Source of the DNA: Schmidtea polychroa
Lineage: Eukaryota
Length of the DNA: 64,000 nt
Assembly: GCA_044892525.1 (NCBI GenBank)
Contig: CM097885.1
Location: 5,706,001-5,770,000 of the forward strand
Direction of reading: 5' to 3'
The notes under the pieces were generated by a model, which saw nothing but the letters and a program-made list of their open reading frames with translations, searched no databases and had not been told where the DNA came from. A program made the translations under genes and the position numbers. Numbering within the stretch: the stretch's first letter is position 1; every line of letters begins with the position of its first letter. Of this stretch, positions 3,843 through 63,138 are shown in pieces.

Positions 3843-3896
3843 TATAATTAAAATTTGTTTATATATTTACAAAATAACTTTAAAATATCATTTTTA

Positions 3897-9210: not shown

Positions 9211-9391
<181 letters not shown>

Positions 9392-9826
9392 ACATATAAC
9401 TATGAAATGTAAGTTACCATAACACGTGTCATATGGGAGATGTTAGAGATCAGTGAAGTGAAACATTTGCACATAAACCCATGTGCTGCTATTGATTGTA
9501 AGTAACGGCTTGGGAAACTCATCTGACAAATACAAAAGCCTACAGGAAATATTTGACAATTATTTATTAAGTTCCCTAACTTAGAAAATTTGGAATGAAT
9601 TGGCACTGTCTAAACGTTTTTCTCAGTGAGTTTGTCAACCACAATTTATGAAAATTTTATAATTTATTTTATTGTTAGTCATAATTTTCACGGTTCAATT
9701 TTCCCGAGTCGAGTCACGTAAAGATTGGTTGAAATGGTTCAAGTCGTTCAAGCTGGTTAAAGTAGAGATGTTGAGTGGACGAACCTTAGGAATACATAAA
9801 AATGTTCCTACCGGTAATTGCTATAA

Positions 9827-10033
<207 letters not shown>

Positions 10034-17695: not shown

Positions 17696-17789
17696 TTTGT
17701 TATAATGATCTTATAATTAAATAAATAATTGTATACAATTTTTCAACAATATTTAAAAAGACTTCAAATATTCTAAATTACTTTTCGAT

Positions 17790-23343: not shown

Positions 23344-23410
23344 CTGATTGGATAGAGTGGCAGCAAATGCATGAAAAATCAGTATAAATACTGATCACAA
23401 ATTCATTTAA
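23344..23410 (+). promoter_or_regulatory. LTR promoter: reverse CCAAT (CTGATTGG) + TATAAATA
   Basis: The same arrangement (CTGATTGG…TATATAAG) occurs at 42826-42862 in the related solo LTR. Confidence 0.6.
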
Positions 23411-23684
23411 GACCACTTTTTTTTCTAACATCAAAATTTAGTTGTAGCCAGTGAAGCTCTCAGTTTTCGATTTTATGCCCACGTGGATTTGGTAATTTAT
23501 TTTTTATTGTTGTAGTAATTTTATGAGATGATTAAATTTAATATGCAATAAAATTTTTAGTTAAATTTTCTTTTGTTATTTTCTTTTAATTGTTTAATTT
23601 CATTTAGTTGCAGGTATTAAATAATAATTTTTATTGTGTTCAATTTTTATACTAACTGATTACGAACGTTAGTACCGCTGAATT

Positions 23685-23808
23685 GAGATTCAGCATATCA
23701 TGGTTTGAGGTACCTTCGGGATGCTCAGACTGGTGGGTATGCTGGTTTTTCAATCGCGCAGCTGGATTGGGCCGGAATGTGGGGGCTTCCTCACGGGTCC
23801 TATCGCTG
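23685..23808 (+). ncRNA. Conserved structured RNA module A (two hairpins, cUUCGg loop); copies at 37608-37731 and 43297-43414
   Basis: Compensatory changes between the two LTR families. Confidence 0.65.
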
Positions 23809-24199
23809 GAAGTACTGTGGTCAAATGTAGGTTAGGACTGAGAATACAGGCAGATCCCTGCTCAAATTTCTTGAAGTATAACTTAAATATTATGGGAAGC
23901 GTGGATTAACTTGAAAATAAGGGCCAATCCCTGCTCAAATTTTTCAAAGGATAAGTTAGATATTGTAGGAAGTGTAGAACAATAATTATTAGCTGGAAAA
24001 TAAGGGCCGATCCCTGCTCAAATTTTTTTGCGAGATAGGTTAAATATTCATAAATATCAAGGAAAATACCTAGCAACATTTATTAATAGAAGAATAAGGG
24101 CGCATCCCTGCAAAAAATTTTGAAAAGAAATAATAGAAACCATCTAGGAATGAGGACCATAACCGAATGAAATAGAAAAGTAGAAATAGAAAGTGATCA

Positions 24200-24345
24200 A
24201 TGACGTAAGACCTTCTATCGGCCGTCTAGAACCCGAAGAGAAAATACAATGGGGAGTAGTTTTAGTAATGGAGCTCACCTGCTCATTGTTTTTTCACCTT
24301 TGTGTACAGTACCAACATGGTCGTCGCCATGGGTACACAAATGGT
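24200..24345 (+). ncRNA. Conserved structured RNA module B (three hairpins) near the LTR 3' end; copies at 38123-38268 and 45881-46020
   Basis: Stems covary between the two LTR families while internal loops are conserved. Confidence 0.65.
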
Positions 24346-24457
24346 TTAAATTGCAATAGTCATGGAGGTGCTTAGGAAAGAGTCGAACGATTATGATTAC
24401 CCCTAACGTATTTTAAATTGTAAAAAGGACACACCCCTAAGTAACCAACATGATTTT

Positions 24458-24475
24458 TGGGGGCTCAGCCGGGAT
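24458..24475 (+). promoter_or_regulatory. Primer-binding site, tRNA-Pro-like
   Basis: TGGGGGCTCAGCCGGGAT, 16/18 identical to the canonical tRNA-Pro PBS TGGGGGCTCGTCCGGGAT, 7 nt downstream of the LTR. Confidence 0.85.
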
Positions 24476-27400: not shown

Positions 27401-28732
27401 AATGGTTGAATGATGGGCCAGCAATTGGTTGAGGATTGGTTATGCAGGCTCTTGATAATATTTATGTCAATGAATTATTAAATGTTAATTGTTATTACGT
27501 TGATTAGTGAATGGATAAACCGAGGGAATGATAGCGGCTTTAGAAGGGGAACTTTTTGAGAATATACTGATAAATGAATATGTAATGGTATGAATGATTA
27601 TATGCAAATGATATATAAGAATGTATGGATTAGGGGGTTTAGGAAAAAGCAAGCTATATATGATTCTGGTATTGAGTTGTCGATACATACAGTGTATGAT
27701 AAGGACTATTTAAACCAATTATACTCTACAGGTAATACCTTCTACGCATACCAACCCAAGGGTAGAGTACCCAAGGATGTTAAATGCATCGGTAAAATGG
27801 AAAGACCAAACCATAAAAACGATTGAATAAACATTCAAATGAAAAATACGATAAAACTCGACAGATAACAAAGTACCAAACGATAAATAAAGCAAATGAT
27901 AACCATGTCTTAGCTTCTGCAAATGTGAATCTGAGACGAACAACATTATAGATAAAGAGATGAGTTTACCAGACGAAACCGAGCGAGTCAACAGATTCTA
28001 CTGAAAGTAAAAGAAAGTAAAGACAAGAAAAGACATCGAAACATCACGAATAGAAATGAACAAAATGAACAAAAGCGTTAAGTAAAAGAACAAAAACAAG
28101 AACTAAGCTTGCTGGTAACTCGAAAAATAAATCTGAACCAAAGACAATCGAGAATAACTGCGAAAAAATAAAATCACGGTACAAAAATAGAGCAAAAACA
28201 AATCGAAATAAAATCTTCGTGACAAAGGCACGAGAACTAAGTTAAAAGGCAGTGAAAAACTTTGCAAAATAGGCGAACATCACAGACACCCAGGGTACGT
28301 AGAAAATGAATTCTAAAACTTATGTAAAACGACTCGGGAGATTGACAAAGTATAGAGAGAAATCAATGAAAGTAAATATACAAGATACGAGAATAACATG
28401 ATAGGTATCAACGAAAATGATCCAGCGAAAGAAACCAGGAAGCCTAAGGTTAGCCAAAGTAATATGAATATACAAGACAGTTATACGTACGATGCTCATA
28501 TTAATAACCGGAAAGAAGTATGAAAAATTATCCAACGTCAACGATAGAGAATTGGAAACAATTAGAACCAGACGGGTGAAATATACAGTAAATGAAAGAG
28601 TACAGAACACTAAACTAAGAACAGTGGGGAGAGATCTAGCAAGTATCACGAATTACGAACCCACATACATAGAAAGGGTGATGACTATATATAGTGTGAA
28701 CAATGAATATATAAAGGTATATGATTATATAA

Positions 28733-28855
28733 ATATATATATATGTATATATATATATATATGTGTATATGTGTGTGTGTGTGTATATATGTATATATAT
28801 GTGTATATATATGTGTATATATGTATATATATGTGTATATATATATATATATATC
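28733..28855. repeat. (TA)/(TG) microsatellite
   Basis: Direct reading. Confidence 0.9.
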
Positions 28856-31472
28856 AGCGCGGTATAATTAGTATATAACTTCGGGAAGTAAAATGAAAAA
28901 AAATTCAGATAAAAGATTATGAATCAATATAGGTGAATTAATAGAATGAAACGGATCACAATGGAAATCAATCCCAATACCACCACAGGAGAAATATGGA
29001 AGCAGAAAAGCGTCATATTATCGTAAATAGCATTAGCTATACAGAAGTAAGGAATCTCATGGAGGAACAATCTAATCGAAAATTTGAACAATGAATTTGT
29101 TCGTGAGAGAATAATCAAGGCCAGAGAGGAAAAATTGAACTAAAGTGAAGAGAAATAGAACAACTCTAATGATAAAGTTAAATGCAAGAAATGAACTAAT
29201 AAGAATAGCTGGGGAAATCAAGGAGAGAAAGATATGATAAAAATGCAACGGATAATATCAGACGTTAAAAGGAAACGGGAAAAGGAAAATGCAGGGAGCT
29301 GAAGATGAAATACAAATAGCTGTAACAATTACAGCATTATATTCATGGAAAATAGTCATAAAATGAAGCATTCAATATACCGAGATGGAGGTGGAATGAG
29401 TAGAAGAACACTTGTACCGGTGGTTTCTGTTGGTAAAGGAGAAAACCAACGAACTATTAGCATGGTCATAGCATTGAAAAGAGACAGTAATGGCAGAACT
29501 GAGTGCCATAAAGAGGACTAATTGTATATAAATAATTGCATATATCGGTGTATACACCCCAACCAAAATGATATATAATAAAAGTAGAGGACCGATCACC
29601 ATAAACAAAGATAAAATAATGCGAAAAATCAAAAATATTAAAATCTACGCCTATTTAAGAGTAAGGAAAATCAATCAGAAAAAATGGACGTTTGGCAAAT
29701 ATTGTAGAGAGGACACGAGAACAAAATACTGAGAACCGAGAGAACACAAGATAATAAATAAATTAAATAATGAATGTCGGGGACGACATTTGGCGAAGAC
29801 GCGGAGGAAAAATGAGATCAAACTAAGATAACAACAAACGGGAGATCAAGATGAAAGTCAAAATGGACATGAGCAGTAATAGGAACAATCGGAAAAAAGT
29901 ATACAAAAACATGATTGACAGAAAATGAAGAGCACACATATAACAAAATAGAATATGAACAAATAAACACAATAAAAATGACAAGGAAAACACAGAACGA
30001 AATGAACAAACATGAAACAACAAATAACAAATTCACAGAAGGAAAGCAAGGCCAAAGACATTTGAACGAAAAGGCAAAACAGCGAGAAACGACAAATATA
30101 AAATGAAACATGATACAGAGAAACAGAACAAAAAATTGAAAGCTTAACATCACGACACGGCCAATTAAAATAACAATAGATGCTAACAAAAATGAGATCA
30201 ATTAGAAATATCGAACAAAAGTTTTAATTAGGAAAAACGAACATACTGCCAACTTTTACTATGGAGCAAAAAGTTACAATAATGAAAAACGAACGGACTG
30301 TCTACTTTTATTACGAACTATAAAGTTACAATTGTGGGAATTTCAATGATAAATTTGAATAAATTCAGAAATGATGGAAGCAATAATATCAACCACTCCA
30401 GGAACAGCTAGGGAGAAATGCGTACAGATGTAGATATCCAGATATAGATGGATATAGGTATATGAATATACGGTTATGGATAAGGGTATATGTATAAGTA
30501 TATGAGTGTATATGTAGACATAGATAAACAATTAAATGAGATAATGAAAATAAATGACCAATCAAAGTTACGCGCCAAAAGTAAAATAACAAATAGACGC
30601 GGAAATAAGTTAAAAACATAAAATATAGGGAGTGGAACAAAGAGGCCCATAAACAGAAAAACAACAAACAAATTTTGAAAACGTAAAATATACGAAATGA
30701 GAAACATTATGACGGGGAAATCAGTGAGGTAACATAAAAAATCAAAGATAAGGAAAATACACTAATACGGAAGCGTGATAAATTACAAAATTGAGCAGGG
30801 ATGGTTAATAAATAAACCATTGACGAATAGAAGGGTAACGAATAAAATGGATAAACAAATATTAACGAGTGATGCGAGAGGGATCTGCCTGAGGAAATAG
30901 TGAGCATATTAACGAGAAACAAGTCAACTAAAGCGGTAAGAGTAAAAGCGATAGCAATAAGACGTTAACTAGACAAGAGACGTGGACATATTTAGAATAA
31001 TGAAGAAGGACCAAGAGTAATTGAGATAAGTAGATTAAGAGCACGACGTAAAAATGAGAATAAAGTCCTACGAAAATTGAGAGCAAATGAATAAGGAAAA
31101 AATTTTTCTGTTAGGATTTAGGAAATCCACAACCTATGAGCTACGCTCAGCGTAGTACGGATAAGGCCCAGGAAAGTACCAACTGTCCTGACGAAAGATG
31201 TGGAACAGGGCCCATCGCATATACTGGAACATCTCTGCGTGTGACTGATCACCACACGATCGGAGATCGACCAGTGCGAGTGTTTCGCATCCGGAGTCAG
31301 GAGAGTGGGGAAAACCTGGAAGAGTAGTAAAAAGAAGCATGTAGGAGAAATAAAAAGAAGACCAAGTAAATGGGAAAAGAGAGAGCGAAGTAAAGAGAAA
31401 CAATTAGAGCTTAAAGACTAAATTGATAGATAACCGGTAGGCAGAATGATAGGGACAAGGACAGTCAAAGGA

Positions 31473-32155
31473 ATGCGAATAATAGATGCGAATAATAGAT
31501 GCGAATAATAGATGCGAATAATAGATGCGAATAATAGATGCGAATAATAGATGCGAATAATAGATGCGAATAATAGATGCGAATAATAGATGCGAATAAT
31601 AGATGCGAATAATAGATGCGAATAATAGATGCGAATAATAGATGCGAATAATAGATGCGAATAATAGATGCGAATAATAGATGCGAATAATAGATGCGAA
31701 TAATAGATGCGAATAATAGATGCGAATAATAGATGCGAATAATAGATGCGAATACTAGATGCGAATAATAGATGCGAATAATAGATGCGAATAATAGATG
31801 CGAATAATAGATGCGAATAATAGATGCGAATAATAGATGCGAATAATAGATGCGAATAATAGATGCGAATAATAGATGCGAATAATAGATGCGAATAATA
31901 GATGCGAATAATAGATGCGAATAATAGATGCGAATAATAGATGCGAATAATAGATGCGAATAATAGATGCGAATAATAGATGCGAATAATAGATGCGAAT
32001 AATAGATGCGAATAATAGATGCGAATAATAGATGCGAATAATAGATGCGAATAATAGATGCGAATACTAGATGCGAATAATAGATGCGAATAATAGATGC
32101 GAATAATAGATGCGAATAATAGATGCAAATAATAGATGCGAATAAGAGATACGAA
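31473..32155. repeat. 13-bp tandem array (ATGCGAATAATAG), ~52 copies
   Basis: Direct reading; almost invariant. Confidence 0.97.
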
Positions 32156-33138
32156 TATAAATGAGAATAATGGCTACGAATAGGAACGGAAATAACAGAC
32201 GTAAATATAGACGAGAATGTAAAAGGAAAGATAAACGAGAATATAGATGAGTACCTGGAAAGAAACATAGACGCGAATATAAACGAGAATAATAACTACG
32301 AATAATAAACGGAAATAACAGACGTAAATATAGATGAAAAGGTAAAAGGAAAGATAAACGAGAATATAGATGAGTACCTAGAAAGAAACATAGACGGGAC
32401 TATAAATGAGAATACAGCCGAAGTCATTGACAGATATATAACTGAAAATAAATAAGATCGTGAAGGAAAAAGACGAAAAACGAATTGAAAATAGACAACC
32501 GTGTAGGAGAATAGATGAGAATATAGAATGAATAATGGAGAACCGAGTCAAGAATAATAAATAAGTCTAAAAATTGGTAACGATAATGGAAAAAGAGAGA
32601 TATAAAGGACGACCAATAAGGTAAACGGAGGAAATTATAAAAATCGGAAACAAACATGAACAGAATAAAGACTACATCAATGAAGAAAACTAAGATAGAA
32701 ACAAGAATACAAGTAATGTAAGTCAATAGATAGAGATAAGCCAAGGAAAAAAGACAGTTAAAGTAGAGAAAACTATAGAAACGAAGAAAAGGAGTGTGAA
32801 TTAAATAAGAAGGATCGAAAAAATTACGTAGGAATTTGAGAACCAATGTGTAAACAAAACTAACGACGAAATGAATATTAAGATATGCCGGCACCCAAAG
32901 AAACCAAAGTAAAAATATTGCAATTGCACTATATAATATATATATTACAATTTATAAATATAATAAACGATAGGGAGAAGTGATATTTTTCTATTCAGGT
33001 AAATCAATCAATCAAGCCAACAGCCAAGTAACAGCAACCAACTAGAAGTTAGTGTCAAACAATTAAGCCAAGTTCGGAAATATTGAACCAATAACAAAGC
33101 ATACCAGATCAAAACAGTTAATAATAGAACCAAGTTTA

Positions 33139-35700
33139 TTGAAAGAAGAAGAATTAAAAGTTGCAAAGAAAGGAAGACGAACTATTAAACCCACGCAAGC
33201 ACAAGAAATCGAAAAGCAAAATCAAAAAGACATTTCAAAGACCCAAGGTCGATCCATAAAAGGAAGCAGTGAAAAGGATTTCGAAAACAATAGGCCAAGA
33301 AGCGTAATACGCGTATCAGAACCTCAGGAAGGAAAAACTCTATCTGAAAACAGAAATAATAAAAGTGCCATAAACCTAATAAAAGAAAAGACAAACGGAA
33401 AAAGAATACAATTAGAGATGGTAGATACAACAGCCCAAATGGAAGCGATCAACAAGAGACTCAGTGAAATGGAGATACCCAATTTCCAGGGAAAATATAA
33501 TGGCGAAAAATACGACGGAAAACCGAACAAACTATCAAACTTTATCCAACATTTTGAATCTTATTGCGATGCTCTAAAATGGACAAACGAAATGATAGTG
33601 AGAAGACTCCCACTATATCTAGCAGATGACGCGTTTAATTGGTACGTCGGAATAAAAGAGTGTACAACCCCACTAAAAACCTGGAAAGAAATTAAGGAAG
33701 CTCTGATAAAAACATTTGGAGAAGCAAAAGATGCACAATACAAATTTCTAGAATTCTTCAATCGAGGACAAGCAGTGAATGAATCAAATATACTTTACGC
33801 CAGCGCACTAAGACGTCTAGCCAAACCGCTGTTCAGTGAAAAGGATATGGAAACACAACTAGTAACCCAATTTGTAAAAGGATTGCAACGAGATGACATT
33901 AAAGGTGTAGTCGGATGCAAAATCTGCAAGACGCTGGACGAAGCAGTAGAGGCAGCGAATGTAAGCGAAATGTACACCAAAGTAACACAACCACCAAGTA
34001 GGAGGCACATCGCAGATAATCAACCCCAACACCACAGACAGTGGAGTCATAACAACAATAATCAAAGAAACGATAATGACAATGAAAGCAAGAGGTTGAA
34101 TAATAGAAACATCGAAAAATTTTGTGATGACTGCAAGAGACAAGGACACTGGCTCGAGGAATGTCATGGACAAAGAAGATGTTGGAATTGCGGTAAGAAA
34201 GGACATACCGCAGTGAGATGTGGAGTATCCAAAAAATGTTTCTCGTGCGGACAAGGAGACCATCTAGCAGTTGCATGTACGAATAAAAGAAACCAACAAC
34301 GGGGTGACAATAGGGATACGTCAACAAAGCAACTATCTGAAATGCAAAATCAAATAACAATTCTCACAGGACTGTGCAGTAACATGATCGATTATCAGTT
34401 TCAAGCGGAAGGAAAACAACAATCAAGAATAAATGTATTACAATGTGTGGGAGGCACATTACAAATTCAAAATATCCAAACAAAACAACAACGAGAATGG
34501 AATACCTTACAGATCGCGGAAGCACGAGAAGCGGAAGAAAGATGGAGTAAACGAAAAGAACCTCAGGCAAGAAGAGAAGAAAAATATTGGAGAACGAGAA
34601 AGGAAGAACTTTTAAAAATGGATATAATGAGACTAACCACCAACGACAACCAGAAGGAAAAGATAGAAAGAATGTGGGAAAGAGAACAAAAAAGAGTAAT
34701 ACAAATCAATATGATGAGAATGATAACGAGCAACGAAATAGATTTACAAAAAATTCCGGACTCAAGGATCGAAAGCGAAATAATTGAAAAACTGGAACAG
34801 GTAATATTAGACCATCAAAACATCAAACCATTTGAGGACAATCAGAGAGATTATACCGGCATCGATAGTCAGGTTGGAATTGCAGTAATCCCGGAAAAGC
34901 GCGAATCGGAGAATGGCGAAAATCACGAAAAACGAAATAATGAAAAAACGCAAGAAAAGTACCATGACATAAACACGTTAAAAACTGAAAGCGAGTGCGA
35001 ACCAGATATCGAATGGGACGCAAGTACAAACAATTACGGGAACGAATACCAACCACAAGGACATAATGAGCGCTATCGGTTCTTCGATAAGACGCATGGG
35101 AATTGTGAGAAAAATGAGCACGGAAAAAATAAATGTCGCCGCATAAAAAGGTGTTACGAATGTAAAAGAACTGGACATTTGGTCAATAACTGTCCGAATG
35201 GGACCAATCCAGTGAGAGATCAGTCACGAGAATACGCCACAGAACAAAACAATAAAGACTATGTCGAAAACAGAATTTGTCAGCCAGGGATACGAAAACA
35301 TCAATCTCCAATGTTAATAAAACAACAGTCGACAAATGTACAGAGACGGACAAATGACGTGAAGGAACAGGTGAAACCCAACGCATACGAGGAACTGAGG
35401 AGACAATGTGTGGAACAGTGCAGGTTAATAATGGAACTGGTTGTAAAAGAAACGAGACAGGATGAATTGATAATGATATGGAGAAAAGTCGCAGAAAACA
35501 AAACAAGAGAAAATGAGGTACTTAAGACAACGATACTCCGACTAAAAGAAGAAGCAAGGTCAGCCGAATTAAGAATCAATGAAATAACGGGTAATCGAAA
35601 AAAATGCAAAGATGGGGCAGAAGAGACACAAATGGTGACGGCCAAGGAAAAGAAGAAGGGTAGTCCAAAGGATGTGGCGGAAATTAAAGAGGAAGCGTAG
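33139..35700 (+). CDS. gag: Retrotransposon Gag with multiple CCHC zinc knuckles and C-terminal coiled-coil extension (first ATG 33418)
   Basis: Capsid-like region KYDG…FIQHFESYC…W…LPLYLADDAFNWY…TWKEIKEALIKTF…Q…ES…QFVKGL. Knuckles CDDCKRQGHWLEEC, CWNCGKKGHTAVRC, CFSCGQGDHLAVAC and CYECKRTGHLVNNC. Confidence 0.92.
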   Translation: MKEEELKVAKKGRRTIKPTQAQEIEKQNQKDISKTQGRSIKGSSEKDFENNRPRSVIRVSEPQEGKTLSENRNNKSAINLIKEKTNGKRIQLEMVDTTAQMEAINKRLSEMEIPNFQGKYNGEKYDGKPNKLSNFIQHFESYCDALKWTNEMIVRRLPLYLADDAFNWYVGIKECTTPLKTWKEIKEALIKTFGEAKDAQYKFLEFFNRGQAVNESNILYASALRRLAKPLFSEKDMETQLVTQFVKGLQRDDIKGVVGCKICKTLDEAVEAANVSEMYTKVTQPPSRRHIADNQPQHHRQWSHNNNNQRNDNDNESKRLNNRNIEKFCDDCKRQGHWLEECHGQRRCWNCGKKGHTAVRCGVSKKCFSCGQGDHLAVACTNKRNQQRGDNRDTSTKQLSEMQNQITILTGLCSNMIDYQFQAEGKQQSRINVLQCVGGTLQIQNIQTKQQREWNTLQIAEAREAEERWSKRKEPQARREEKYWRTRKEELLKMDIMRLTTNDNQKEKIERMWEREQKRVIQINMMRMITSNEIDLQKIPDSRIESEIIEKLEQVILDHQNIKPFEDNQRDYTGIDSQVGIAVIPEKRESENGENHEKRNNEKTQEKYHDINTLKTESECEPDIEWDASTNNYGNEYQPQGHNERYRFFDKTHGNCEKNEHGKNKCRRIKRCYECKRTGHLVNNCPNGTNPVRDQSREYATEQNNKDYVENRICQPGIRKHQSPMLIKQQSTNVQRRTNDVKEQVKPNAYEELRRQCVEQCRLIMELVVKETRQDELIMIWRKVAENKTRENEVLKTTILRLKEEARSAELRINEITGNRKKCKDGAEETQMVTAKEKKKGSPKDVAEIKEEA

Positions 35701-36729
35701 ATGAAAATAGTAAAAAGGAAGTGAACATATGTAAAAATTGATGTATAAATAGCAAATTAAATGTACTAGATGTATAGGTATAAATTGATGTATAATGTGG
35801 CAAAAGATCGATGTATAAATAGAAATGGATCAAGTAATCAGTTGAAAAAATACTAAATTTGAACCCTTACAATGGTAAAGGAGAACAGAGGCTCAAATGA
35901 GAAGAAAGAATATAAATCCAGAAGAAAGATAAAGATGCAAACCTAGAAAGAATGAGTTAAACGAATATTTAAAAATAATACCTAATTTGGAACCCCTAAA
36001 CAAAGAACGGTAAAAGATCCTGATAAATGAGACGAAAGTCACAGACCCAGTGACATTAGAAACTTAATCAAATCAAGCGAACTTAGACCAAAATCGAAAA
36101 TAATTTGAGTTACCCACTAGAGGAAGAAAATCCCTTAATAAGAACAATACCGTAAACAAAAACCACCGGGAAAAACCAAAAGAAAAATCTATGTGTCAAA
36201 TCACCCTTTTAAACAAAAATCCCGAAAACCCTGGAGCAAGGTCTGTCAACTACCATCAAATGATCCAGAAAACCGGAATCCCAGCCTAAAAATTCAAAGA
36301 GAATCAGGGAAAAACAGTCAAATCCTGATAGAGAGAATCCTATGATCTTCAGTAAATATTACGACCTAACTATGAAAATCAACAGCAGGAACCAAACAGG
36401 CCTACACAACCCAGACGAAAGATGGAAAACCGAGCCCAGAAACGAGAGAAACAACCAACTGATGAATTTATCCAGAAATAAAACTTTTGCATATGACTCG
36501 TACTTGAGTTTGGACACTGTATCAGTATGTATGTGTATTATGACCAGTCACTGTATGTGGCAACTGCTTGAATTTGAGCTTAGACCTTTTTCTGCTAATT
36601 GAATTCTAACATGTCTTAAACTATTATAGTATGTTTATAGGTTAATGGGAATGTAATAGACTATGACCTGGGAAATTCATATGTCTAACAGAATTGCGGG
36701 ACGCAATTTTAACGGGTCCCGGAGTGATT

Positions 36730-38373
36730 TGTTGGGCTGAAACCGAGAACTGAGAGTTTGTTTTAATCGATCGAAAATACCTAACACAAAAACCGCAAAG
36801 TTGAAAAATTTATGACCAAGGTTTAATTTAAAATAAATGAAATAAATTACATCACACATTAAGAACCAATAAACCCCGTATAATAGAATAAGAGATAAAT
36901 AAATTTAACAAAAAATTCAACACTTAAAAATTTAAATAGAAAAATAATAAAATATAAAATAGAATTAGTTGAAAATTATTTAAACAATATAAAAATTAAA
37001 TCGTCAAAAATAATAAAATTAGTTAGCATTATATAAATTGTAAAGTTTATAGAATTAAATGGTTATTTAACTTATTAAATTTAAAGAATAAAAATGTTTA
37101 AATTAATAAAAATTAATATAACTCAAATTATTTAAATTATAAAATTTATAAAATTAAAATTAATAAAAATTAAATAAGAAATTAATTAAATTTATTGAAT
37201 TAAAACAAATAAACAATTGCACACACTCATGCAGGTATGCAAGACTAATTAAAAATTTCTCGCACTCTGATTGGATAGAGTGGCAGCAAATGCATGAAAA
37301 ATCAGTATAAATACTGATCACAAATTCATTTAAGACCACTTTTTTTTCTAACATCAAAATTTAGTTGTAGCCAGTGAAGCTCTCAGTTTTCGATTTTATG
37401 CCCACGTGGATTTGGTAATTTATTTTTTATTGTTGTAGTAATTTTATGAGATGATTAAATTTAATATGCAATAAAATTTTTAGTTAAATTTTCTTTTGTT
37501 ATTTTCTTTTAATTGTTTAATTTCATTTAGTTGCAGGTATTAAATAATAATTTTTATTGTGTTCAATTTTTATACTAACTGATTACGAACGTTAGTACCG
37601 CTGAATTGAGATTCAGCATATCATGGTTTGAGGTACCTTCGGGATGCTCAGACTGGTGGGTATGCTGGTTTTTCAATCGCGCAGCTGGATTGGGCCGGAA
37701 TGTGGGGGCTTCCTCACGGGTCCTATCGCTGGAAGTACTGTGGTCAAATGTAGGTTAGGACTGAGAATACAGGCAGATCCCTGCTCAAATTTCTTGAAGT
37801 ATAACTTAAATATTATGGGAAGCGTGGATTAACTTGAAAATAAGGGCCAATCCCTGCTCAAATTTTTCAAAGGATAAGTTAGATATTGTAGGAAGTGTAG
37901 AACAATAATTATTAGCTGGAAAATAAGGGCCGATCCCTGCTCAAATTTTTTTGCGAGATAGGTTAAATATTCATAAATATCAAGGAAAATACCTAGCAAC
38001 ATTTATTAATAGAAGAATAAGGGCGCATCCCTGCAAAAAATTTTGAAAAGAAATAATAGAAACCATCTAGGAATGAGGACCATAACCGAATGAAATAGAA
38101 AAGTAGAAATAGAAAGTGATCAATGACGTAAGACCTTCTATCGGCCGTCTAGAACCCGAAGAGAAAATACAATGGGGAGTAGTTTTAGTAATGGAGCTCA
38201 CCTGCTCATTGTTTTTTCACCTTTGTGTACAGTACCAACATGGTCGTCGCCATGGGTACACAAATGGTTTAAATTGCAATAGTCATGGAGGTGCTTAGGA
38301 AAGAGTCGAACGATTATGATTACCCCTAACGTATTTTAAATTGTAAAAAGGACACACCCCTAAGTAACCAACA
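36730..38373 (+). repeat. 3' LTR
   Basis: Direct repeat of 22807-24450, followed by TSD TTTA. Confidence 0.95.
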
Positions 38374-40152: not shown

Positions 40153-41314
40153 TCAAAGGTTAGGGTAACTAGCCATGGTAGCTATTCCACATTGATTATC
40201 CTTATCTTTTGACATCTTTATATATCCTCTAAGTCCCCAGGAATCTCCCCAACTATTTTTCACTAGCCAATAATTTTCTCCTGAATCTTCATCGACCCCA
40301 TAACCAACTGCTAAGACGCCATGATCAAGCTGAGTTGATGAACAGGTTTCTTCATCATAAACTCCTCCCTATAAAAAAACAGAGGCGAAAAAAATAAATT
40401 GTTTAACTAACATTGTAAAACTGGAAACTAGGATTACTGGCATCAATTGCAACCGATATTGGCCCTACGGTTGCTAATTTTTCTGCCAAATCTTCTTCAC
40501 TTCCATGATCAATATCGGTAAAGTTTTTGCACCGTGTTATTACTTTGCGTTTGGAATATTGGCAGCTTCCATCCTGTAAATATATACAGGCGATATAGGC
40601 ATTGTATGGGATAACAAGTGATAATACCAACCATGGCTGTGTAAGGATAAACGCTTTCCTTTTCGATTCCATATTTCATAATATATTGAAAGGCTTGATC
40701 CATCAAACCACCATTGCAGCCTTCATTACCAAAACTTTGACTACAATCAACGAGTTGCTGTTCAGAAAAGCTGACTAATCTTTTTGTTTTCTTAAAATAT
40801 TGTCCTTCCATTGAGCCTGTCGTGGAAAATGCCCAACAAGATCCACATTGTTGCTTTAATTATAATTTGTTATTACTCACCTACTTTTAACCTTTTTTAC
40901 TTGATTTTTGACATTTGTGACGTAACCTTTTTTCACCCAGTTTACACTGTTGGGCAAATCCAATGACTTTCGTTTCTTGTCAGCAGATTTCCAGTCAACG
41001 GATTTCACGATTGGCCGATATTTTGTATAGATATCTAAAAATTCCTGATGAGTTAGGTCGGTAAACTGATTGACTCCCAATGTGTATTTATGTCTCCCAA
41101 GGTTGTATTCAATATTGTGTCTTTGAATGAATTGCAGATTTTCCTCCCAAATTTGCCTTCGAGCAAACTCATCCTCATCATTATAGGATTTGGCAAACTT
41201 AGTTTTGTATTCACTCCACAGCTCATCGAATCTTTGAAGGAAAAGCCCTGACCATGGTATGGATTCAACAAAACACGGGGTGATTATTAATATTATTCTC
41301 ACAAAGTCCATCAT
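40153..41314 (-). CDS. CTSL: Cathepsin L-like cysteine protease (exons 41314-40901, 40853-40632, 40573-40412, 40368-40153)
   Basis: Signal peptide; ERFNIN-type ([19 protein letters not shown]) and GVNQFTD propeptide motifs; [20 protein letters not shown] and YWLVKNSWG. Short canonical introns. Confidence 0.95.
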
Positions 41315-42501
41315 CGCTAATATTGTCAGAGACAACGCCTTTTATATTCATCGTTGTTCACACGAAAGTCATGTGCCTCGAATCCGTGAATTTATTCAAC
41401 GAGTCTAAGACTTTTCATAGAATAAATAATTAGTCAATTCCTAGAATTAATTTTGAAATGACGGATTATTATAATTAGGTTTAATTACATTTTTAAATGC
41501 GCAACCATTTATCGACTAAGACCCCTTTCACCCTTAAATATGAAAAGAATAAAATAAAAATAAAAATTTTAATAAATTACTACAATGGCCTAGGAGTCAG
41601 AATTTGTAATAGTCCTACCAGATTTTGTTATTGACAAAACAATATTGGGACAATGATAATACACTTTCGGCAAGAATTAGCTCTAAATCTGACTTCTCGT
41701 GTTCCGTAGAAAAATCAAAGAAGCCCAACAGAATAGAATTTATTAATTAGTTATCAAGAACATAAGGATTTCGCTCCATCAGTGACCATTTTGCAATTCT
41801 GACTTTCGACTATCGGTTTGAGTTTTTTCTCTTTGTCTTCCACTAAAAGTGACAAATTTTCTATATTTTTGTCTATTTGTATGGACATATTCGTCCTCCG
41901 GGACCAATAAGCAGTTATTGAAACCATCCTCCCTAAATGATTTATGAAATTAATCAACGTGTCAACTCTGAGATTTTCACAATGATTGATTGGTTTTTTA
42001 TTAAAAAATTAGTTTTTTTTGTTCTACCCTCCATAGGGACTTCTTGTACTTTTAAATTTGTCTTAAATATTTTATTTGCCATCAGTTATCACGTTTTCTG
42101 TCAGAAAAATATTAATATGCAGTTTCTTGAATATTTCCCTAAATTTTTATTAGTTTTGTCTCTTCAATTTTCCATTTATTTTGTGCATTTTTGTGTAACC
42201 CCAATAGTGTTACAAGTTTTAAAAACAATTTTTATTCATCTAGATTTTAAAACCAATACAGTGTAACTTCTATATAGGGGGCACGAATTTTCATACATGC
42301 CCTAATTATAGAGTGTGCCCCACTCATGGAATTCTTTTTAAAAACATATCTAATGATATCAAAAATTAAATGTGCCAATAATTAATACAAGACAATATTT
42401 AAACTAAGATTTTTATTAATATTATTTTAATGCAGATAAACAAATGATTAACTGAATTAAAATAAATAATTATTATTAATTTTAGAGAAAATTGAATAAA
42501 T

Positions 42502-45500
42502 TGTTGGGCTGAGTCGAAAACATAATCGTCGAAAATTAAGACAGATAGGGCGTGAACAAAATAAAATAAGACAACAAATTTTAAAACAAATAAGTCAAGA
42601 CATAAAAGAAACAATAAAATAAGATATAAGGATTAAAACAAAAAATAAAAATGAGAAAATTAAAAATAAGGTAATAAGATAACGAATAAGATAACGAAAA
42701 ATGCAACAAATAATATGGAATTTAAGAAATAAATAAAAGATATAATAAAAATAGGAAAAATAAGTAAAATATCCAAAGAAATAGGAAAAAACAAATTAAT
42801 TTAAAAAATTAAGCGGTACTAAATTCTGATTGGTCCACATAAACGAAAAATTCATATATAAGGAAACAGTAAACTCATTATAGTTACTGTTAAAAACCAA
42901 ACATTTACAGTTACAGGTACTCAACAATCCAGACAATCAAACCAAATTAGACTACTAGAAAGCAGACGACTATTAGGGACAGTTCTATATTCGATTCAGA
43001 ACCAGCACGATTAAATTAGTTTTCGACTCAGCTTTGGAAACACTGATTAAGACCGTTCGGTAAGGATGTGTTTTATATATTTTAGATTGCATAAACGATT
43101 TATAATGTTAAACATTTATTATATTAATTGAAAAGGTCGTAATAAATTTCTTCATTTGATCTCGTTTTTCCATAATAATGTATTTTAATGATTAAATCTA
43201 AACGTGAACGGTAAAGAAACATTTATATTATGCATTTGTATTTGGAGTTCTTATATTTTTATCATGATAATTTGACAATGAGTAACGTGGAGTTGAGAAG
43301 ATTCATATCATGGTGTGAGGAGCCTTCGGGAGCTCAGCCGATGGGTATGAATCTTTTCAATCATGCAGCTGACGTGGGCCGTAATGTGGGGGCTTCCTCA
43401 CGGGTCCGTCGCTGAAGGTTATAAAATGCTGCAAGGAATAGTTAGAGGTAAAGTAGAAAATGATGTAACTCGGGGATTAACAGTGATTGAGGTGGCTACA
43501 AACTTTCATCTGCAAGAGTTTCATAAATCCCAACTACCACCTTTGAAGATCTTCGTTTTGTCCTTACTAACCAGCCTAAATCGTTTATTCCCATCGACAG
43601 ACCTACTATCATCTACATGCAAATCATTTCTTCCGTCAAAAGCTATATCACATTTCATCTTAGAGGATAAATTAAGTGTTAGTGCGCTCACTCTGACATC
43701 GTACAACAACGTAGAAAACATACCAGAAGAATTTTAAACGTATTTAATTGAAAAAATAACATTTCGAAGAATCCTTTATTTCCAGTAAAAACAATTTTTG
43801 AATTACCCATAGCTGGAGCCTGGAGATTGCTCCCTGGAATGCACCCTTGATAGAGGTCGCCATGACGAGGATCGTATAAATACCCACCGAACGAGATATT
43901 TCAAGATATGGACGAGAGAGGCTGTACGACCTAAAATCCAATTTTTTTCGGTTGATGAGAAATAAACAGTAGATCATATAGGAACCAAATGATTAATTTC
44001 CAAATATTGAGATAACCGGAGTTCTGCGGTTAAGATAAAGTATGAATATGCACGGTGAAAATGTGTAGCCTGACCATGTGCAGATAGTAAATTCCGATTG
44101 AGTAATCACCTTCGGTTAGAGTCGCATGCACACAAGTGAAAATTTACCTCCGGTTTAATCGATGTTACACTCGCTCAGTCAGCACGGCAGCCGTGGATTC
44201 ACTAACTAGTATCAGTAGTGAAAAAATAAATCCAGTTACACGCACATAGTAAATCTGAATTTTCTGGAAAATCCTACTGGCAATTGAATTGACTAGGAGA
44301 CCTGTAGCAGAGGGTTTATACTATGCGTAACGCGCATCAAGTCTGAAGATTAGATTTGCCTAAATTATTACTAACGCAATTAATCAAATTGAGTAAAGTC
44401 AGTTAGGCTTTACATTTTTGTGATCGATAACATTTAGTATTAAATTAGAATATTATCTCTTTAAGCGGATTTAAAATTACTTAATTAATTCATCATTTCT
44501 GTATGTTTTACATGCATTAACTAATCACTGAATTAAAGTTGAACGTGGTTGCGACCCCACATTTATAAGTTTTCTTGGTCAGCAATAAATTACTATATTA
44601 GACTAAAAAGGGGGGGGGGAATTCACTCGCCAACCCCTACATACATAAACCATCCACCGATTTAATATCAATCAACAGAGGATGCTTCCGGCCCGCCATT
44701 CTGTTTTCTTCTCGTCAATCCTTTGAACATCATGAACGTAATGTATGGAATTCATAAAATAAATAAATAATTACGCCACACTGAGGGTTTAGTAGAGTTA
44801 ACCAATTTTCGTTTTACCTTATTTATTCTTTCCCCATTACAACTATCGAAATGTTGCCAAGCACGAAGTCTTCTATCAAACCCTGCTTCTCCTGCGCAGA
44901 CAAAAACACTATAATCCGAGATTTACAGGCCCAGATCGGTCGATATAAAAAGAAAATCGACGATCTGGAAGGTACATGGTTTAGCCCAGTACAAATGAAA
45001 GAGGTACGGAAGAAGCTGTACCGTAGTGAGCATTGTCGTGATGCCCTAATAAATGAGAGCAGATCTCAGCGCAGTTTGATCAAAGAGCAGTCAGAAGCTC
45101 TGCATAAAGTTTATATACAAGCAGCCACTACCCGGAAAATTGTAAGTATTCCCATTAACGAAGCCGACAATATCTTCCCCGTCCACCACGATCCTTCGTT
45201 CAATTTACCACCTTCTTCCAAGAAGTCATGTCGTGGATGCGTAGAGGCCAACCTCTCTCCCAGGCCGACCGAAGTAGTTACCACTGGAGTCAGTAAAGGG
45301 TTTTCAACATCCGCGTCTACATCTATAGTGCCATCGAATGTACCAAGCATTCCGAAAACCAAGCGTTGACAATTGTCTAGAGCAGAACGTAAAAAGCGGC
45401 AACGTGATCGAGCGGTCGCCAAACATCTTCGGACAACCCGACTAATCCCGACCGCCTTCCTGTTACGATCGATCTAACGGTAGGGAATCCAGGGCGATTC

Positions 45501-46149
45501 ATCTCCGCCGCTGGTGTGACTTGGGAGGAAAACGCCTCCGAGTTTTTCGACTTGGATGAATTGTTAGCAGACACCGGATGGGAGAAATGAAAACCTCCTC
45601 GTAGAGCAATCGAGCGGTATAGTAATGGTCAAACTGAACTATCATGGTCTAACTCTTTCCTTACACCGTTTGTCTATGAAATTGTATATGTTATATGTCA
45701 CTCATCCGTATATTGTATTTCGATGACAAAATAAAACAGTTTTTGGTTATCAAGCTCTTCGTTTTTGTAGTAGTTCGGAGTAGCTTTTATAGATCAAGTA
45801 GAGATTTTGCAGTTCGAAGAGTAATAGTCAATTTGCATCTAATTCGGGGTCGAAGGAAAGTGAGGTTTGATGATGCGATTATGACGTAAGTCCTTCTATC
45901 GGCAGTCAGGGAAAGGAAGTCGAGGCCTCAGTAAGGAGTAGTCCTAAGGCAGGGGCGCACCTGCTTACTGGAGTCTCGCCGCATAGCACATTTCCAACGT
46001 GAAGCAATTCACGGGTGCTACGTTGGAGTGTAGGTTGTGCAGGGTTCTGCTCAGGGTTGACATGGGTATAATTAATGTAAGTGAAATGGACACCCATCTC
46101 CTTTACAAGCGCGTGAGTGGGTTGAAGTCAACCGAGCACTACCCCAGCA
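42502..46149 (+). mobile_element. Large (3.65-kb) solo LTR related to the 22807-38373 element
   Basis: Starts TGTTGGGCTGA (same as the 1644-bp LTR) and ends TACCCCAGCA; TSD AAAT; shares promoter layout and RNA modules A and B. Confidence 0.85.
44851..45590 (+). pseudogene. LTR-embedded accessory ORF (CxxC + coiled coil, basic patch, acidic tail), with a stop at 45367 and a frameshift at ~45422
   Basis: A 172-aa ORF continues after TGA as QLSRAERKKRQRDR and, in a shifted frame, as …EFFDLDELLADTGWEK*. Confidence 0.5.
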
Positions 46150-47985
46150 AAATAGACATTTTTTGTTCACAAAATATGACTTATTTTTGTTAGTTTGTAA
46201 GGCAGGTAGCTATTTTTTATTAGATATTTTAAAATACTAACAAAAAAAGATTAAACCAAATAATAACTAACCAAAAAATAAATATCATAATTTGGTTTTA
46301 ATTGATACAACTTGGCACAATTTAAGAATCGTAGACAGTCTACGGTAGACTGCCAAAATTTTCAAGGAAAATAGTTGATGCCCAATCAGTATTTAACAGA
46401 AAAATGCATTCTCCTATCACACATTGGTATCATATGCAATATAGATTAGATTTATTTTTTAATGTATAAATATTTGACTTTCTTAGGAGCTTTCGAGAAA
46501 GTAATTAAGGCCATGAGCCGTATGCTGTCCAAGTCTGTACTAGAGAATAAAAATAAAATACTCTCAATAAATGACTGTCAAACATCATTACTTCTCTAGA
46601 ATGAAATATAGATATTTTGATAAATTCTTAAAAAAATATTACATTTTTAACATGTTTATACCTACAATATGATATACAATATCTTTATGCCCATTGGAAT
46701 TGAAATAAAATATCTATATTTTTTAACCGAAAAATAAAATAAAAATAGTTGTATGACAAACTATTCATTTAACACTTTTTCGCCAGCGCGGATTTTCATG
46801 CTGCGCATCATCTGGTGGCGCAGTTTATGGTATTGAACAAAAGTTATGTTAAAGTTATAATTTCTCAAATCATAATAACAAATAACAATTAACAAGTAAA
46901 GTATATTTAAATATTTAAAGTCTAACGTGTCCTTTCTATTATTAAAACAACTATAATTAATAAACATTAGTTATTGAACATTACTGTTGATAATACGTTA
47001 TTCATTATAATTGTAATTAAAAATAAATGTTTTTGATGAATACACGTTAAATTTTCTAATAATACGACTTATATACGTCTAATAACACAATCAAATAAGT
47101 TCCACTGGTGGTACTCGCCACCCGATGGGACCGGTTAGTCTCACCTAATTTATAGTAATTGATCAATTCTAAAATTTGATTTTATGTTTTTTTCATTAAA
47201 TTTAAATGCATCAATTTTATCTTAATTTGGCTATTTATTATTTATTACATGAATTTGAGAGAAAAGTAAAGAAAACTCTCATTTAAAAATGACGAATTAT
47301 ATGAATGTGACATTACTCACACTAAAAGTGAAATTGCAAATATTTGTGAATCAATCAAATGAACATCTGATTTATGCCAAGGATTTAATGCAAGCATTGT
47401 TGCATTTAAAATATTTGGAAATGAAAAGTCTCGTTCATTGTTTGGAGCTAATTTCGAGAGAATAATTCATTACAATGTTAATTATATTTATGATGAGGTG
47501 AAAAAATAAATACCAATGAATGAAAAGATTGTAAATTGTTTACCGATTGTACAGGTTGTACAGGTTGTGCAATGCACAAGGACCCAGGTATAAAAGAATC
47601 CAATGGAGACTAAAGAAGTACATTAATTACTTGCTAATAATCGTTATTTTAATAAGACAATTCCACTGTTTGACATGGATAGTTTTTACAATATATTGTT
47701 TCAAAAATTTAAGTTTTTCTGATTTTGCACACGTTCTTGATATATTTTATTAAAGCCAGATGAAGTCAATTAAAACTTCAAGGGGCCAAACACTGAAGCT
47801 GTATTTTGCAATAATTGAAAAAGAAAATGATCGAATTAAAGAACAGGAATGCTTATACAACAAATTTAAAATTTGCGATGCGTTAAGCCATTGATGAAAC
47901 GGTTTTAATGGACTATTACTTTGACACAGGGATTCGTATATACAAAGGTTTAATATTTAAATTTAATGATTTACAATTACAAATT

Positions 47986-49154: not shown

Positions 49155-52152
49155 CAGTGGTGATATTCGAATTTTTTAACAACCGGTACGCATGGAAAAA
49201 AATCTATTGTAGGTTATATTTACTTCATAATAGTTATTTATTTACATATTTACATAAGAAATACATATATTATATATAATAGTATAAAAAATAGTATATA
49301 AAATTAATTAAATAATTTCCAAATTAAATTTTGGTTTTGGGACGGCAAATTAGGTGCGGCTGCTTTGACACGTTTGTCACTTGCCATATGATGCCCTTCT
49401 CGCAACCATAATTTAACATATGGTGTTGCATCAAAATCCTCAATCGATTTTCCCATTAAATTTATTGTCATTAAATGACTTGTTGTTTCAATTAACAACG
49501 AATTTCTCTTATCATAAATGATATTGTTCATTGTGCTGAGTCCTCTTTCAGCTTCTGCGGAATTAACAGCAATTACATTTAAAATTCTTTTTGCTCTCAA
49601 AATAGTATTAATATTTTTAGATTCTCTATCTCGCACATCAACAAAATCTCGAAAATCATTTACTGGAATGATGTATTTGATTATTTTATTTAACTGCTCT
49701 AACCTATTTTCACCTTCAATCCATGGTGCTTCAAAAATATCACCCGGCCATGTTTCTGGATTTAATAAATTAAAGCAATTTAAGAGATTATTATAGTTTT
49801 CATTTTTATCGTCTAATAGCAAACGCGTTTTCATATGTTTTTCTAAACAATCAAAAAATGTATCTCTCGAAACAACAATTGATGTTTTTTTTTCTATTAA
49901 TTTCAAATGGAATATTGTATTTTTTCGTTTTAATAATATCATCTGCTTCTTTTTCATATGTTCCTTTATTTAATTTTAAATGTTGGAATAGATTTATCGT
50001 TCGCCTTATCAATCTATCAGCTCTAATTAATGAAATATCTCTTTCTTGTAAAGCTGTAGACAGTACAGAAATTTCTTCTAATATGTTGTTTATTAAACCT
50101 AAATCTTTTAAAAAGTTTTCATTTTTGAAATATGACATTATTCCAATTTCTTTATTTTGGCTAGTGAATATATAAGGCCTGATATGATTTCCAAACTGCT
50201 TTGGCGGTCCTAGCGCTACAGGCTGCCCATCAAGGACCAAATATTCTACCTATTTTGTGTACTTCAGTGCCAAGTTCTTTAGAAACATTATTTAATTCTC
50301 GTTGATGTTTATTTGAAGTATGATAATACGAATAAAGTTTATCGAGAAAATATCTAAAGTTATTTACTTCATTTACTTCTTTGATAACATCATCTAGAGT
50401 TAACTGAATACGATGAGCTAAACAGTGACAGATGCTAATACCTGGAAAATGTTCTAAAATTCTTGCAGAAACTCCAGCCTTTTTTCCTAACATTACACTG
50501 AGCAAAATCCAATAAGAATTTCATGTAAATATTTTTCATTAAAACCATGTTTTTCAAGAACTGATATTAAGGTTTTAAAAATTATTTCTGATGTTGTTCC
50601 TTCTAATTCGACAAGATCAATAAAAACTGTTACACTATCATCGGAATCTTGAATTTCAGATTTCAAATAAACTACTAAAACGCTTTTGTGTGAAACAGTT
50701 GAGGCTTCATCAATAATAATTGAAATTTTACAACCTGTATTTATCAGTTTTCCAAAAATAATTCTTCTTATTTCTGTAGATATAAGCTTTGCGACAAGTG
50801 GAACTATAAATCTGGAATGTAATGAAAATCCAAAATCTACATTATTTTTTTTCTGTAAATCAATTAATTTTTTAAAATCACTGAATGGGTAATTGTTTTT
50901 AATTATGAAAAAGATAGTATTAAAAATGTTTACTGTGCTGTTTAAATACTTTTCATTAGCCACATCGAAAGATTTGGAAATTATATTTGTTTCACCAATT
51001 TTTATTATTTCCCCAGCTTTTTTATGTGAAGCTGATTCATTGTGTTCCTTCAATTTTTTTCTCATTGATGATTGTAAATTTTCTTTCTTCGAGCCATGAG
51101 CTTTGACAGAACATGATTTCCACTCCACAGAAATGTGTAAATGTTTAGCAGTTTCTAAATTTAACGATTCTACTTTCGAACACCACTGACATCCCACATT
51201 TTCATCGCTAACAACAATAAGCCACTCGTATTTAGTTTTAAAATAATTTAGTTGTTTATCATTCCAAAAATGTAATAACGCAGCATCACGAGACGTTCCA
51301 GCTTTTTCCGATTGGTGTTGAACTTCAGAAGTATCATTTTTTCTTTTACCTGTTTTGTTTGATTAGAATTAGTAATATTCTCAGCTTGCTGTTCAGGGTT
51401 TTTGGTTATTTTTATAGATTTGCTAAAAAAGTCATCCAAATTACCTTGTCTTTTCATTCTTAGGTTGAAACAAAGAAAATATTTAATAATTAATTAATAA
51501 TTAATTAAAAATTTAAATCAATTTAAAATCTTCATACTTGCACGTTAAAACTGAATTTAATAGAGATAAAAAGTAAGGGATAACCATTCACCATAAAAAT
51601 ATTTATACTACTAAACTTTTTATTTAGAGTAAATATATCAAAATAAAAATGTATTCAAAAAGGGAAATTCCCTTTTTATTAAAAGAAAAATATTTTTTTT
51701 TACAGAATTTTCCGTTAACCCTTTCAAGCTTAGTGGTTAAGCGGTGAAACCACCTATTAAAATGCAACTTTACACATGCTCAGTAGGAATTTTTCAATTC
51801 CATAAATTTTGTTCTATAATTCAATGACATCTCTTGGATTGTAGTGGAAATTAAAAGTACTAAAATTCAAATTAGACAGTTTTAAGTAGATTTTTTTTTA
51901 CTAAAACCAAAAAAAATTTTAAATCCCAAATTTTTATTTTATTGTAATATTTTTTTGTATTTGATCGATAATGGCAGGTAAATATTTATATTTTTTTAGT
52001 AATTTAGAATGTTTTTATCAATACTTTTACTTTTACATACTTTTACTTAAAAACATACTTTTTTTTAATATACAACAACCGGTACGGAAAATTTTAAAAA
52101 TGTTAACAACCGGTACGAGCGTACCGCCCGTACCGGCTGAATATCACCACTG
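49155..52152 (-). mobile_element. hAT DNA transposon, full length (ZNF862/KIAA1586-like transposase)
   Basis: Perfect TIR CAGTGGTGATATTC; 8-bp TSD GTATCACC; AACCGGTACG subterminal repeats. Confidence 0.95.
49304..51457 (-). pseudogene. hAT transposase, several frameshifts
   Basis: Motifs IIIDEAST, HCLAHRIQL and NSAEAERGLSTMN are spread over 5 overlapping ORFs. Confidence 0.88.

Positions 52153-52774: not shown

Positions 52775-63138
<10,364 letters not shown>

Follow-up and report, generated by a model that had tools for sequence, protein, structure and literature searches.

A conserved gene within the long terminal repeat of a Burro-type retrotransposon of Schmidtea polychroa and its possible role as an RNA-processing switch

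In the logic of the retroviral protein Rev, a response element is present only in intron-retaining RNA, and the protein combines an arginine-rich domain that serves as nuclear localization signal (NLS) and in RNA binding with oligomerization and a nuclear export signal (NES) (available text of PMC10746203). In Cer1 of C. elegans, a gypsy element with a tRNA-Pro primer-binding site (PBS), the nuclear protein CERV is produced from a spliced mRNA, possesses a leucine zipper, an NLS, a Cys loop and a predicted multimeric form, and is required for export of the unspliced genomic RNA (available text of PMC10309623). The present study concerns a gene for a potential regulator of this type that lies inside the long terminal repeat (LTR) of a giant gypsy element of the planarian Schmidtea polychroa. 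The gene was analyzed from a stretch of 64,000 nucleotides, termed the window here (assembly GCA_044892525.1, contig CM097885.1, 5,706,001–5,770,000), in which a broken copy occupies positions 44851–45590 within a solo LTR at 42502–46149. Features lie on the forward strand unless stated otherwise.

Compared by description, the Burro-type gene and the portrayal of CERV in that part of PMC10309623 share a gypsy element, a tRNA-Pro PBS and regulator-type protein features, but the Burro-type gene specifies ~250 amino acids (aa) and is wholly internal to the LTR. With the Rev/RRE, Rex/RxRE and Rec/RcRE pairs, as covered in the same portion of PMC10746203, it has in common an Arg-rich patch, predicted oligomerization and a candidate structured element confined to intron-retaining RNA. 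It differs from these pairs in having no significant sequence or fold match, in a doubtful NES, and in that gene and element are both duplicated in each LTR. Moreover, the oligomerization domain of Rev is a helical hairpin, whereas the Burro-type protein is modelled as a coiled-coil dimer. MMTV sag and HIV nef are U3 genes whose expression from the 3′ LTR depends either on a promoter elsewhere or on splicing from the 5′ LTR. In both cases, as here, coding sequence lies within or overlaps an LTR; the Burro-type gene is situated instead 3′ of the putative promoter of its own LTR as a separate, presumably spliced unit. An open reading frame (ORF) upstream of the LTR start site, as in U3-encoded genes, was not found, the predicted start being ~2 kb 5′ of the ATG. 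The parallel with sag and nef drawn in the initial annotation therefore holds for the presence of a protein gene in an LTR, but not for its place. To our knowledge the R/U5 region of foamy viruses contains no protein gene, whereas that of the Burro-type element would hold one. The two are alike in that a splice donor precedes a poly(A) signal, an order seen in 5/5 LTRs here; in foamy virus R, U1 binding at the donor suppresses poly(A) addition within the 5′ LTR, and the same suppression may operate in the planarian element (available text of PMC3694450).

The polyprotein domains and an upstream accessory ORF of Burro/GYPSM1 have been described, and the accessible part of that description includes neither an LTR-internal gene nor RNA modules (PMC6431247). 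Similarly, Burro is mentioned without an LTR gene in the available portions of PMC8532177 and PMC11410931. A spliced gene that is 3′ of an LTR promoter and wrapped around a structured intronic element was not found in the literature searched; the ORF may be shown in the original Burro description (Grohme 2018) or its supplements, in Repbase or in Fig. 2A of PMC6431247, all of which lay outside that search.

The LTR gene is under purifying selection

The solo LTR is 3,648 bp in length with TGTTGGG...CCCAGCA ends, and is flanked by a 4-bp duplication (AAAT, 42498–42501 and 46150–46153). An ORF of 172 aa that includes PCFSC, a coiled coil, CRGC and a Ser/Thr linker begins with the ATG at 44851 and terminates at the stop at 45367–45369. 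A basic patch is located past the stop in the same frame, and an acidic FFDLDELLAD tail follows in a different frame. The initial annotation joined these segments across one stop and one frameshift into an accessory gene of ~245 aa. Alignment to a natural copy (L003) bore out both lesions, the second of which is a 10-nt gap at 45418/45419, and natural open copies are 247–249 aa in length. As the acceptor dinucleotide of the relatives also is missing, besides the stop and the gap, the window copy probably is dead.

A DNA search for copies of the gene, in which 40 of 999 candidates were scored, yielded 30 loci of which the window is one. LTR matches (blastn) reached the same terminal base in 29/30 loci. 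The open frame of 247–249 aa was kept in 16 of the 30 related loci, and 14 failed the intactness test. The selection test, which took in open copies only, gave a ratio of nonsynonymous to synonymous divergence (dN/dS) of 0.128 over 105 pairs with dS >0.2; the ratio over 15 close pairs was 0.33. Values were lowest in the basic patch (0.042), the tail (0.064) and the N-terminal 130 codons that specify the helical domain (0.076), and reached 0.33–0.43 in the linkers. The corresponding ratio of proportions (pN/pS) over all 120 pairs was 0.19 in the proposed frame, whereas four other frames gave 0.97–2.48 and one antisense frame gave 0.29. The data demonstrate that the LTR gene is under purifying selection. 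The check for intact copies that had been proposed at the outset thus produced a dN/dS value not near 1, and relatives proved to hold the open frame rather than to lack it.

A protein search of the genome with a 66%-identical variant raised 6,860 candidates, a figure that is not a copy number. A stop-free match was present in 139 of the best 150 that were scored, a ranking that favors intact copies. Among these 150 matches, 30 same-strand pairs or triples spaced 22–30 kb apart were counted by us. A further family, represented by L072, possesses a 253-aa version with 37% identity at the same LTR position. As every subfamily seen has the gene at this LTR position, and full elements have it there in each of their two LTRs, the gene is not a nested insertion. 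Overall, the presence of the ORF in relatives, a dN/dS far below 1 and the constant position uphold the earlier proposal that the LTR carries a real accessory gene. Profile searches of 1.84 billion proteins identified nine remote homologues (E 2e-8 to 6e-4; P0001–P0009). Seven of the nine also contain an unrelated host domain (transporter, subtilase, actin and others), and the homologues probably are host gene models mispredicted to include an LTR exon. A word-based homologue search gave 0/7,223 candidates, and a second run that covered proteins of 715–2,040 aa gave 0/7,995.

Carrier element, LTR architecture and RNA modules

The gene is present in both LTRs of elements of ~30 kb. Downstream of a gene-bearing 5′ LTR are a tRNA-Pro PBS, a RING ORF, Gag with CCHC knuckles, a ubiquitin-like domain whose match is weak (E 0.009), and a fusion glycoprotein. 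Pfam matches in a truncated copy with breaks comprised PF03732, PF00098 and PF24664 (E 1e-36; the fusion glycoprotein, of Monjiviricetes type). One paired copy that was inserted recently has LTRs of ~3.85 kb that are identical over the 647 nt compared; this copy (L070) has a partial rve match (E 0.001, below cut-off in a piece cut at its start) followed by Ank_2 (E 4e-18). The best 150 of 12,744 candidates in a genome search with RVT_1 did not reach these elements. Size, domain order and PBS suggest that the carrier is a Burro/GYPSM1-type giant gypsy element. Features shared with the accessible description of Burro/GYPSM1 are the ~30-kb length, an accessory ORF upstream, a CCHC Gag, a ubiquitin-like domain, a fusion glycoprotein in frame, and an integrase with ankyrins after it (PMC6431247). 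Three ORFs (211+, 258 and 222 aa) lie between the polyprotein and the 3′ LTR in L069 (2–2210): two are coiled-coil-rich, one has apparent signal and membrane segments, and none matches a Pfam family above cut-off. A tandem array of tRNA-Pro(TGG) genes, the primer tRNA of these elements, begins at 130.90 Mb of G000:C1 (L065–L067) with a period of 475 bp; the 22-nt tRNA-Pro(TGG) pattern has 2,164 matches in the genome.

A CCAAT box (CTGATTGG) and a TATA box are paired at 42826–42862 in the window and recur in L068, L031, L072 and the 1,644-bp LTR of the gag-only element described below. In the solo LTR and in L031, L068 and L072, ~2 kb separate the pair from the ATG 3′ of it. The putative transcription start and first exon (42885–42916) are single-copy in the window. 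In L031, L068 and L072 an exon-1-like unit of 26–29 nt begins 28–31 nt past the TATA box and is exactly duplicated around a GT...AG mini-intron with a period of 47–50 nt (L068, 377–454; L072, 182–257; L031, reverse strand, TATA+31/+78). The duplicated unit is identical within a family and differs between families; the duplication is absent from the subfamily of the window and from the short LTR. If the capped end of the RNA were spliced and strand transfer then occurred in register to an unspliced 3′ copy, the second unit would be overwritten in each cycle, and concerted identity would result. Under this account the identity places the start site, and the duplicated unit would be exon 1. The mini-intron duplication may therefore provide a handle on start site and strand transfer from sequence alone.

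A predicted splice donor, GTAAGG (43060–43065), would open an LTR intron of ~1.8 kb, and the motif is found at a like position in L068 and L031. A proximal AATAAA (43141–43146) lies between the donor and RNA module A. It is present in 5/5 LTRs examined, for which the joint chance is 0.002, but two of these LTRs are related. A polypyrimidine tract (44806–44850) precedes the ATG in the window, where the YAG acceptor is lacking. Among open copies, a YAG acceptor ≤15 nt from the ATG was detected in 34/36, with a pyrimidine fraction of 0.75 versus a background of 0.52; the DNA upstream of this conserved acceptor cannot be aligned among copies. A distal AATAAA with GU/U-rich sequence downstream (45730–45735 in the window) is located 104–140 nt past the stop in 36/36 open copies; L072 has only ATTAAA past its stop. 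This arrangement of promoter, donor, acceptor and poly(A) motifs suggests that the gene forms the final exon of a spliced unit wholly inside R/U5, which would extend over ~3.3 kb from the predicted start. Both LTR families in the window start with TGTTGGGCTGA (42502–42512 and 22807–22817). This sequence is partly complementary to the PBS at 24458–24476, and could pair the two ends of the genomic RNA.

RNA module A (43281–43418), which comprises a long covarying hairpin and a second hairpin, is within the predicted intron. Folding z-scores in three families were −4.7, −3.3 and −6.5, with a weaker value of −2.9 for the opposite strand. Seventeen copies were aligned, one truncated copy and seven near-duplicates being left out, and pairs were counted with our own script using slid-partner controls only. 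In this alignment 94% of cells pair and two-sided changes occur in 14/51 pairs, compared with 37–51% of cells and 1–5 pairs in the controls; the comparison leans to the favorable side because a single member supplied the structure and related copies were compared. A core of 15–16 nt occurs 1,239 times, versus 0 for the reversed control. RNA module B (45883–46149) consists of a GACGTAAG anchor, two conserved hairpins (45920–46030) and the LTR end. The same two-hairpin shape with different stems is predicted in three families (z −3.3 to −4.6), whereas the window copy shares the first hairpin and has a weaker fold (z −2.7). The anchor, which resembles a cyclic AMP response element (CRE), is altered in L072. 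Compensatory changes are evident in both modules, each of which is a real structured RNA. The modules may be bound by the protein but could equally be packaging or reverse-transcription signals, and the position of module B adjoining the PBS suits packaging or priming.

No Rfam covariance model matched either module (E≤5, window 22000–47000). HDV-like, hairpin and twister-sister ribozymes were considered and rejected on topology. A long-range interaction that would join the two loops of module A also was rejected: where the second hairpin has changed, the compensating change is local and not in the first loop. In L032 (reverse strand, 4096–7695), an LTR of another subfamily adjoins the fusion-glycoprotein frame of a truncated element. 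The open gene and module B are present in L032 but the promoter motifs and module A are missing; the locus probably is chimeric. Siblings from the same subfamily keep module A.

The window also contains an element that has gag only. The 5′ LTR (22807–24450) includes module A (23671–23812) and module B (24202–24450) but no accessory gene, and is followed by a PBS (24458–24476) that is an exact 19-nt complement of the 3′ end, with CCA, of host tRNA-Pro(TGG). This PBS recurs behind the gene-bearing LTRs L027, L051 and L068. A Gag-like ORF with CCHC knuckles (33067–35700) has 43% identity over 164 aa to Gag behind a gene-bearing LTR, and the 3′ LTR is at 36730–38373 with module A at 37594–37735. 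The two LTRs are 1,644 bp in length and 99.9% identical. The accessory protein has no match in these LTRs (tblastn), and the integrase-ankyrin and fusion pieces have none in the element (22807–38373). In blastn the short LTRs resembled the solo LTR only over module A (138 nt at 79% identity), in a 27-nt seed of module B and in a weak A-rich match within U3. The possibility that the short LTR is a deleted form of the solo LTR consequently was rejected: the initial annotation was right that modules A and B are kept without the gene, but this is not the long LTR minus a block. The gag-only element instead belongs to a sister family, as its LTR and the solo LTR have little in common apart from the two modules. 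Module A of the short LTR is identical in 40/40 scored copies, a sign of recent movement. Many identical copies of the element exist, with LTR pairs mostly 12–15 kb apart. Three to four degenerate repeats of ~75 nt (23839–24130) are located where the long LTR has the gene, and a 13-bp tandem repeat (31473–32182; 55 copies, 97% matches) lies 5′ of gag.

The encoded protein and its possible role

The N-terminal part of the protein has a CxxC motif and two long helices joined by GTWFSP (aa 12–97; 44884–45141), the region shared with the remote homologues. In AlphaFold2 models, helices at residues 15–40 and 46–97 were confident, a further helix covered the basic patch and the remainder was disordered (mean predicted local distance difference test (pLDDT) 56). 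Residues 8–116 were modelled as a parallel homodimer with a score of 0.57, compared with 0.01 for the best control (pLDDT ≥72; runs agreed in at least 97% of contacts). The homodimer mark was reached by 21/30 solved pairs and 0/23 monomers from microbes and by 17/29 eukaryotic pairs, but by only 1/7 without a solved relative. The models suggest that the protein dimerizes via its coiled coil. The Arg/Lys-rich patch (aa ~169–187; 45355–45411; dN/dS 0.04) is present in every family down to 37% identity: L003, L068 and L072 have 10–11 Arg and Lys per 17 residues, four remote homologues have 6–11 Arg, and NRRRRERRR-type runs occur in 5/9 remote homologues, where the patch is dominated by Arg and resembles that of Rev. 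The C-terminal segment (45468–45587; dN/dS 0.06) includes an IDLT motif, which resembles a motif for interaction with the small ubiquitin-like modifier (SUMO), and an acidic-aromatic tail. IDLT is invariant in 15/15 aligned close copies, appears as YIDLT or YIDLE in 2/9 remote homologues and is absent from the L072 protein. Over the last 30 residues, in which aromatic residues and leucines are conserved (FFDLDELL/VDIDEML), the net charge is −5 to −8. Pfam searches with three protein versions returned only sub-cut-off coiled-coil and low-complexity matches, the best PDB sequence profile had a non-significant E of 0.23, and a viral fold search with the low-confidence full-length model identified nothing at E≤0.001. 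The best match in the ESM Atlas (0.86) is unnamed and is a lead only.

The best reading, to which a probability of roughly 45% is assigned, is that the protein acts as an RNA-processing switch analogous to Rev or CERV. In this scheme the LTR promoter early on would direct a short RNA, spliced from a donor at ~+560–620 to the acceptor just 5′ of the ATG and ended at the AATAAA past the stop of the gene. Devoid of module A, this RNA would be translated into the protein, which would dimerize by its coiled coil and enter the nucleus. There the Arg-rich patch might bind intron-retaining RNA, most likely at module A, and allow full-length RNA, with the intron kept and one or two poly(A) sites of the 5′ LTR passed, to be finished and exported. 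The outcome would be an early-to-late switch like those of Rev, Rex and Rec or CERV. Full-length RNA would keep the ~1.8-kb intron and the mRNA for the protein would lose module A, an arrangement similar in logic to Rev with its response element. The gag-only relatives would keep the RNA modules and borrow the protein, which solo LTRs with intact signals also could supply. Region-specific selection, the acceptor, the AATAAA, the position and covariation of module A, the Arg-rich patch, the dimer model and the precedents count for this reading.

More tentatively, each Burro LTR might be a self-contained circuit of promoter, cap-proximal mini-intron, large response-element intron, Rev-like gene and poly(A) site, with solo LTRs in their thousands as dispersed expressible regulators and the short-LTR gag-only family as a parasite of the circuit via its RNA elements. 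If the switch is correct, Burro would be a 'complex' retrovirus-like element whose regulator and response element arose independently of vertebrate retroviruses and CERV. The regulator would be in a new place, internal to the LTR and 3′ of the promoter, and solo LTRs, usually seen as inert promoters, would be protein-coding units. The proposal also bears on how a PIWI-controlled planarian element that is among the most abundant is switched on.

Several results weigh against the switch. In the Pfam, PDB and viral-fold searches nothing connected the protein by sequence or fold with Rev, Rex, Rec or Tat; one remote homologue scored weakly on Pfam REV (E 0.0013; 19.1 bits, cut-off 22), which counts for the switch but is below cut-off and may be compositional. 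A strict NES was not found: a loose reverse class-1a match occurs in the tail of 6/7 proteins and not in L072, and an acidic activation domain would account for the tail just as well. The covariance model for module A matched neither L072 nor L032, both of which have an open gene, although a different long hairpin (z −3.7) is at the module A position in L072. A search for an intron-less LTR junction with one subfamily as probe gave 0 matches, which nonetheless fits packaging of unspliced RNA. Finally, retention of the modules without the gene in the gag-only family is as supply in trans would predict, but non-autonomous elements keep packaging and priming signals anyway, and the retention does not single out the protein.

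The same tail underlies an account that is rather unlikely but the strongest of the alternatives, namely that the protein is a transcriptional activator similar to Tat or foamy virus Tas. A nuclear dimer recruited to the LTR via RNA or DNA would activate transcription through the acidic tail in positive feedback. Acidic activation domains display a pattern of acidic with aromatic or leucine residues, which the conserved tail matches; a CRE-like sequence opens module B, and RKKRQRER in the protein presumably resembles the Tat basic motif. Nevertheless, TAR is located at the 5′ end of the RNA, unlike module A which is ~400–500 nt from the putative start, the CRE-like word is 3′ of the gene and changed in L072, and none of the Pfam, PDB-profile and viral-fold searches detected a DNA-binding domain.

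It is doubtful that the protein is directed at the host, as a nuclear SUMO-binding factor that counters silencing by piRNA and heterochromatin or another host pathway, with the modules serving independently in packaging and priming. The conservation of IDLT in close copies and its recurrence in two remote homologues would suit this role, as would the RING ORF and ubiquitin-like domain of the carrier, and the Arg-rich patch may be an NLS alone. In favor of such a factor, too, SMEDWI-2 represses BURRO1 (available text of PMC8532177). However, the absence of IDLT from the L072 protein argues against it, and the arrangement of the gene around module A would be left unexplained. A structural or chaperone role is improbable; in it, a basic coiled-coil protein would coat or protect the strong-stop DNA or the very long R/U5 RNA while the element is reverse-transcribed or packaged. 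R and U5 together usually are far shorter than the ~3.3 kb predicted here, and a dimer with a basic patch, as modelled, would suit nucleic-acid bridging, but movement is seen in the gag-only family, whose LTR is short and which has a CCHC Gag of its own, and the conserved acidic tail is unaccounted for. That the frame is non-functional or an independent nested insertion is scarcely credible: although the window copy and 14/30 loci are not intact and no Pfam family is matched above cut-off, the frame-specific dN/dS of 0.13 refutes this reading, and the constant position of the gene, shared by the two LTRs of 30 paired elements and by the 37%-identical family, also speaks against it.

Other features of the window

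An intron-less ORF of 522 aa at 3852–5420 appears to resemble CWC22/MIF4G proteins and may be a retrocopy or captured gene. At 9208–10033, (TAT)n and (ATA)n tracts form inverted arms of ~180 nt that flank a 430-nt core. Fragments at 6350–8219, 49304–51362, 17186–17710, 16676–17251 and 40877–41341 appear to resemble hAT transposases, a non-LTR reverse transcriptase, a proteasome alpha subunit and a cathepsin L propeptide. A 28-bp satellite extends over 53873–58598 in 169 copies with 92% matches.

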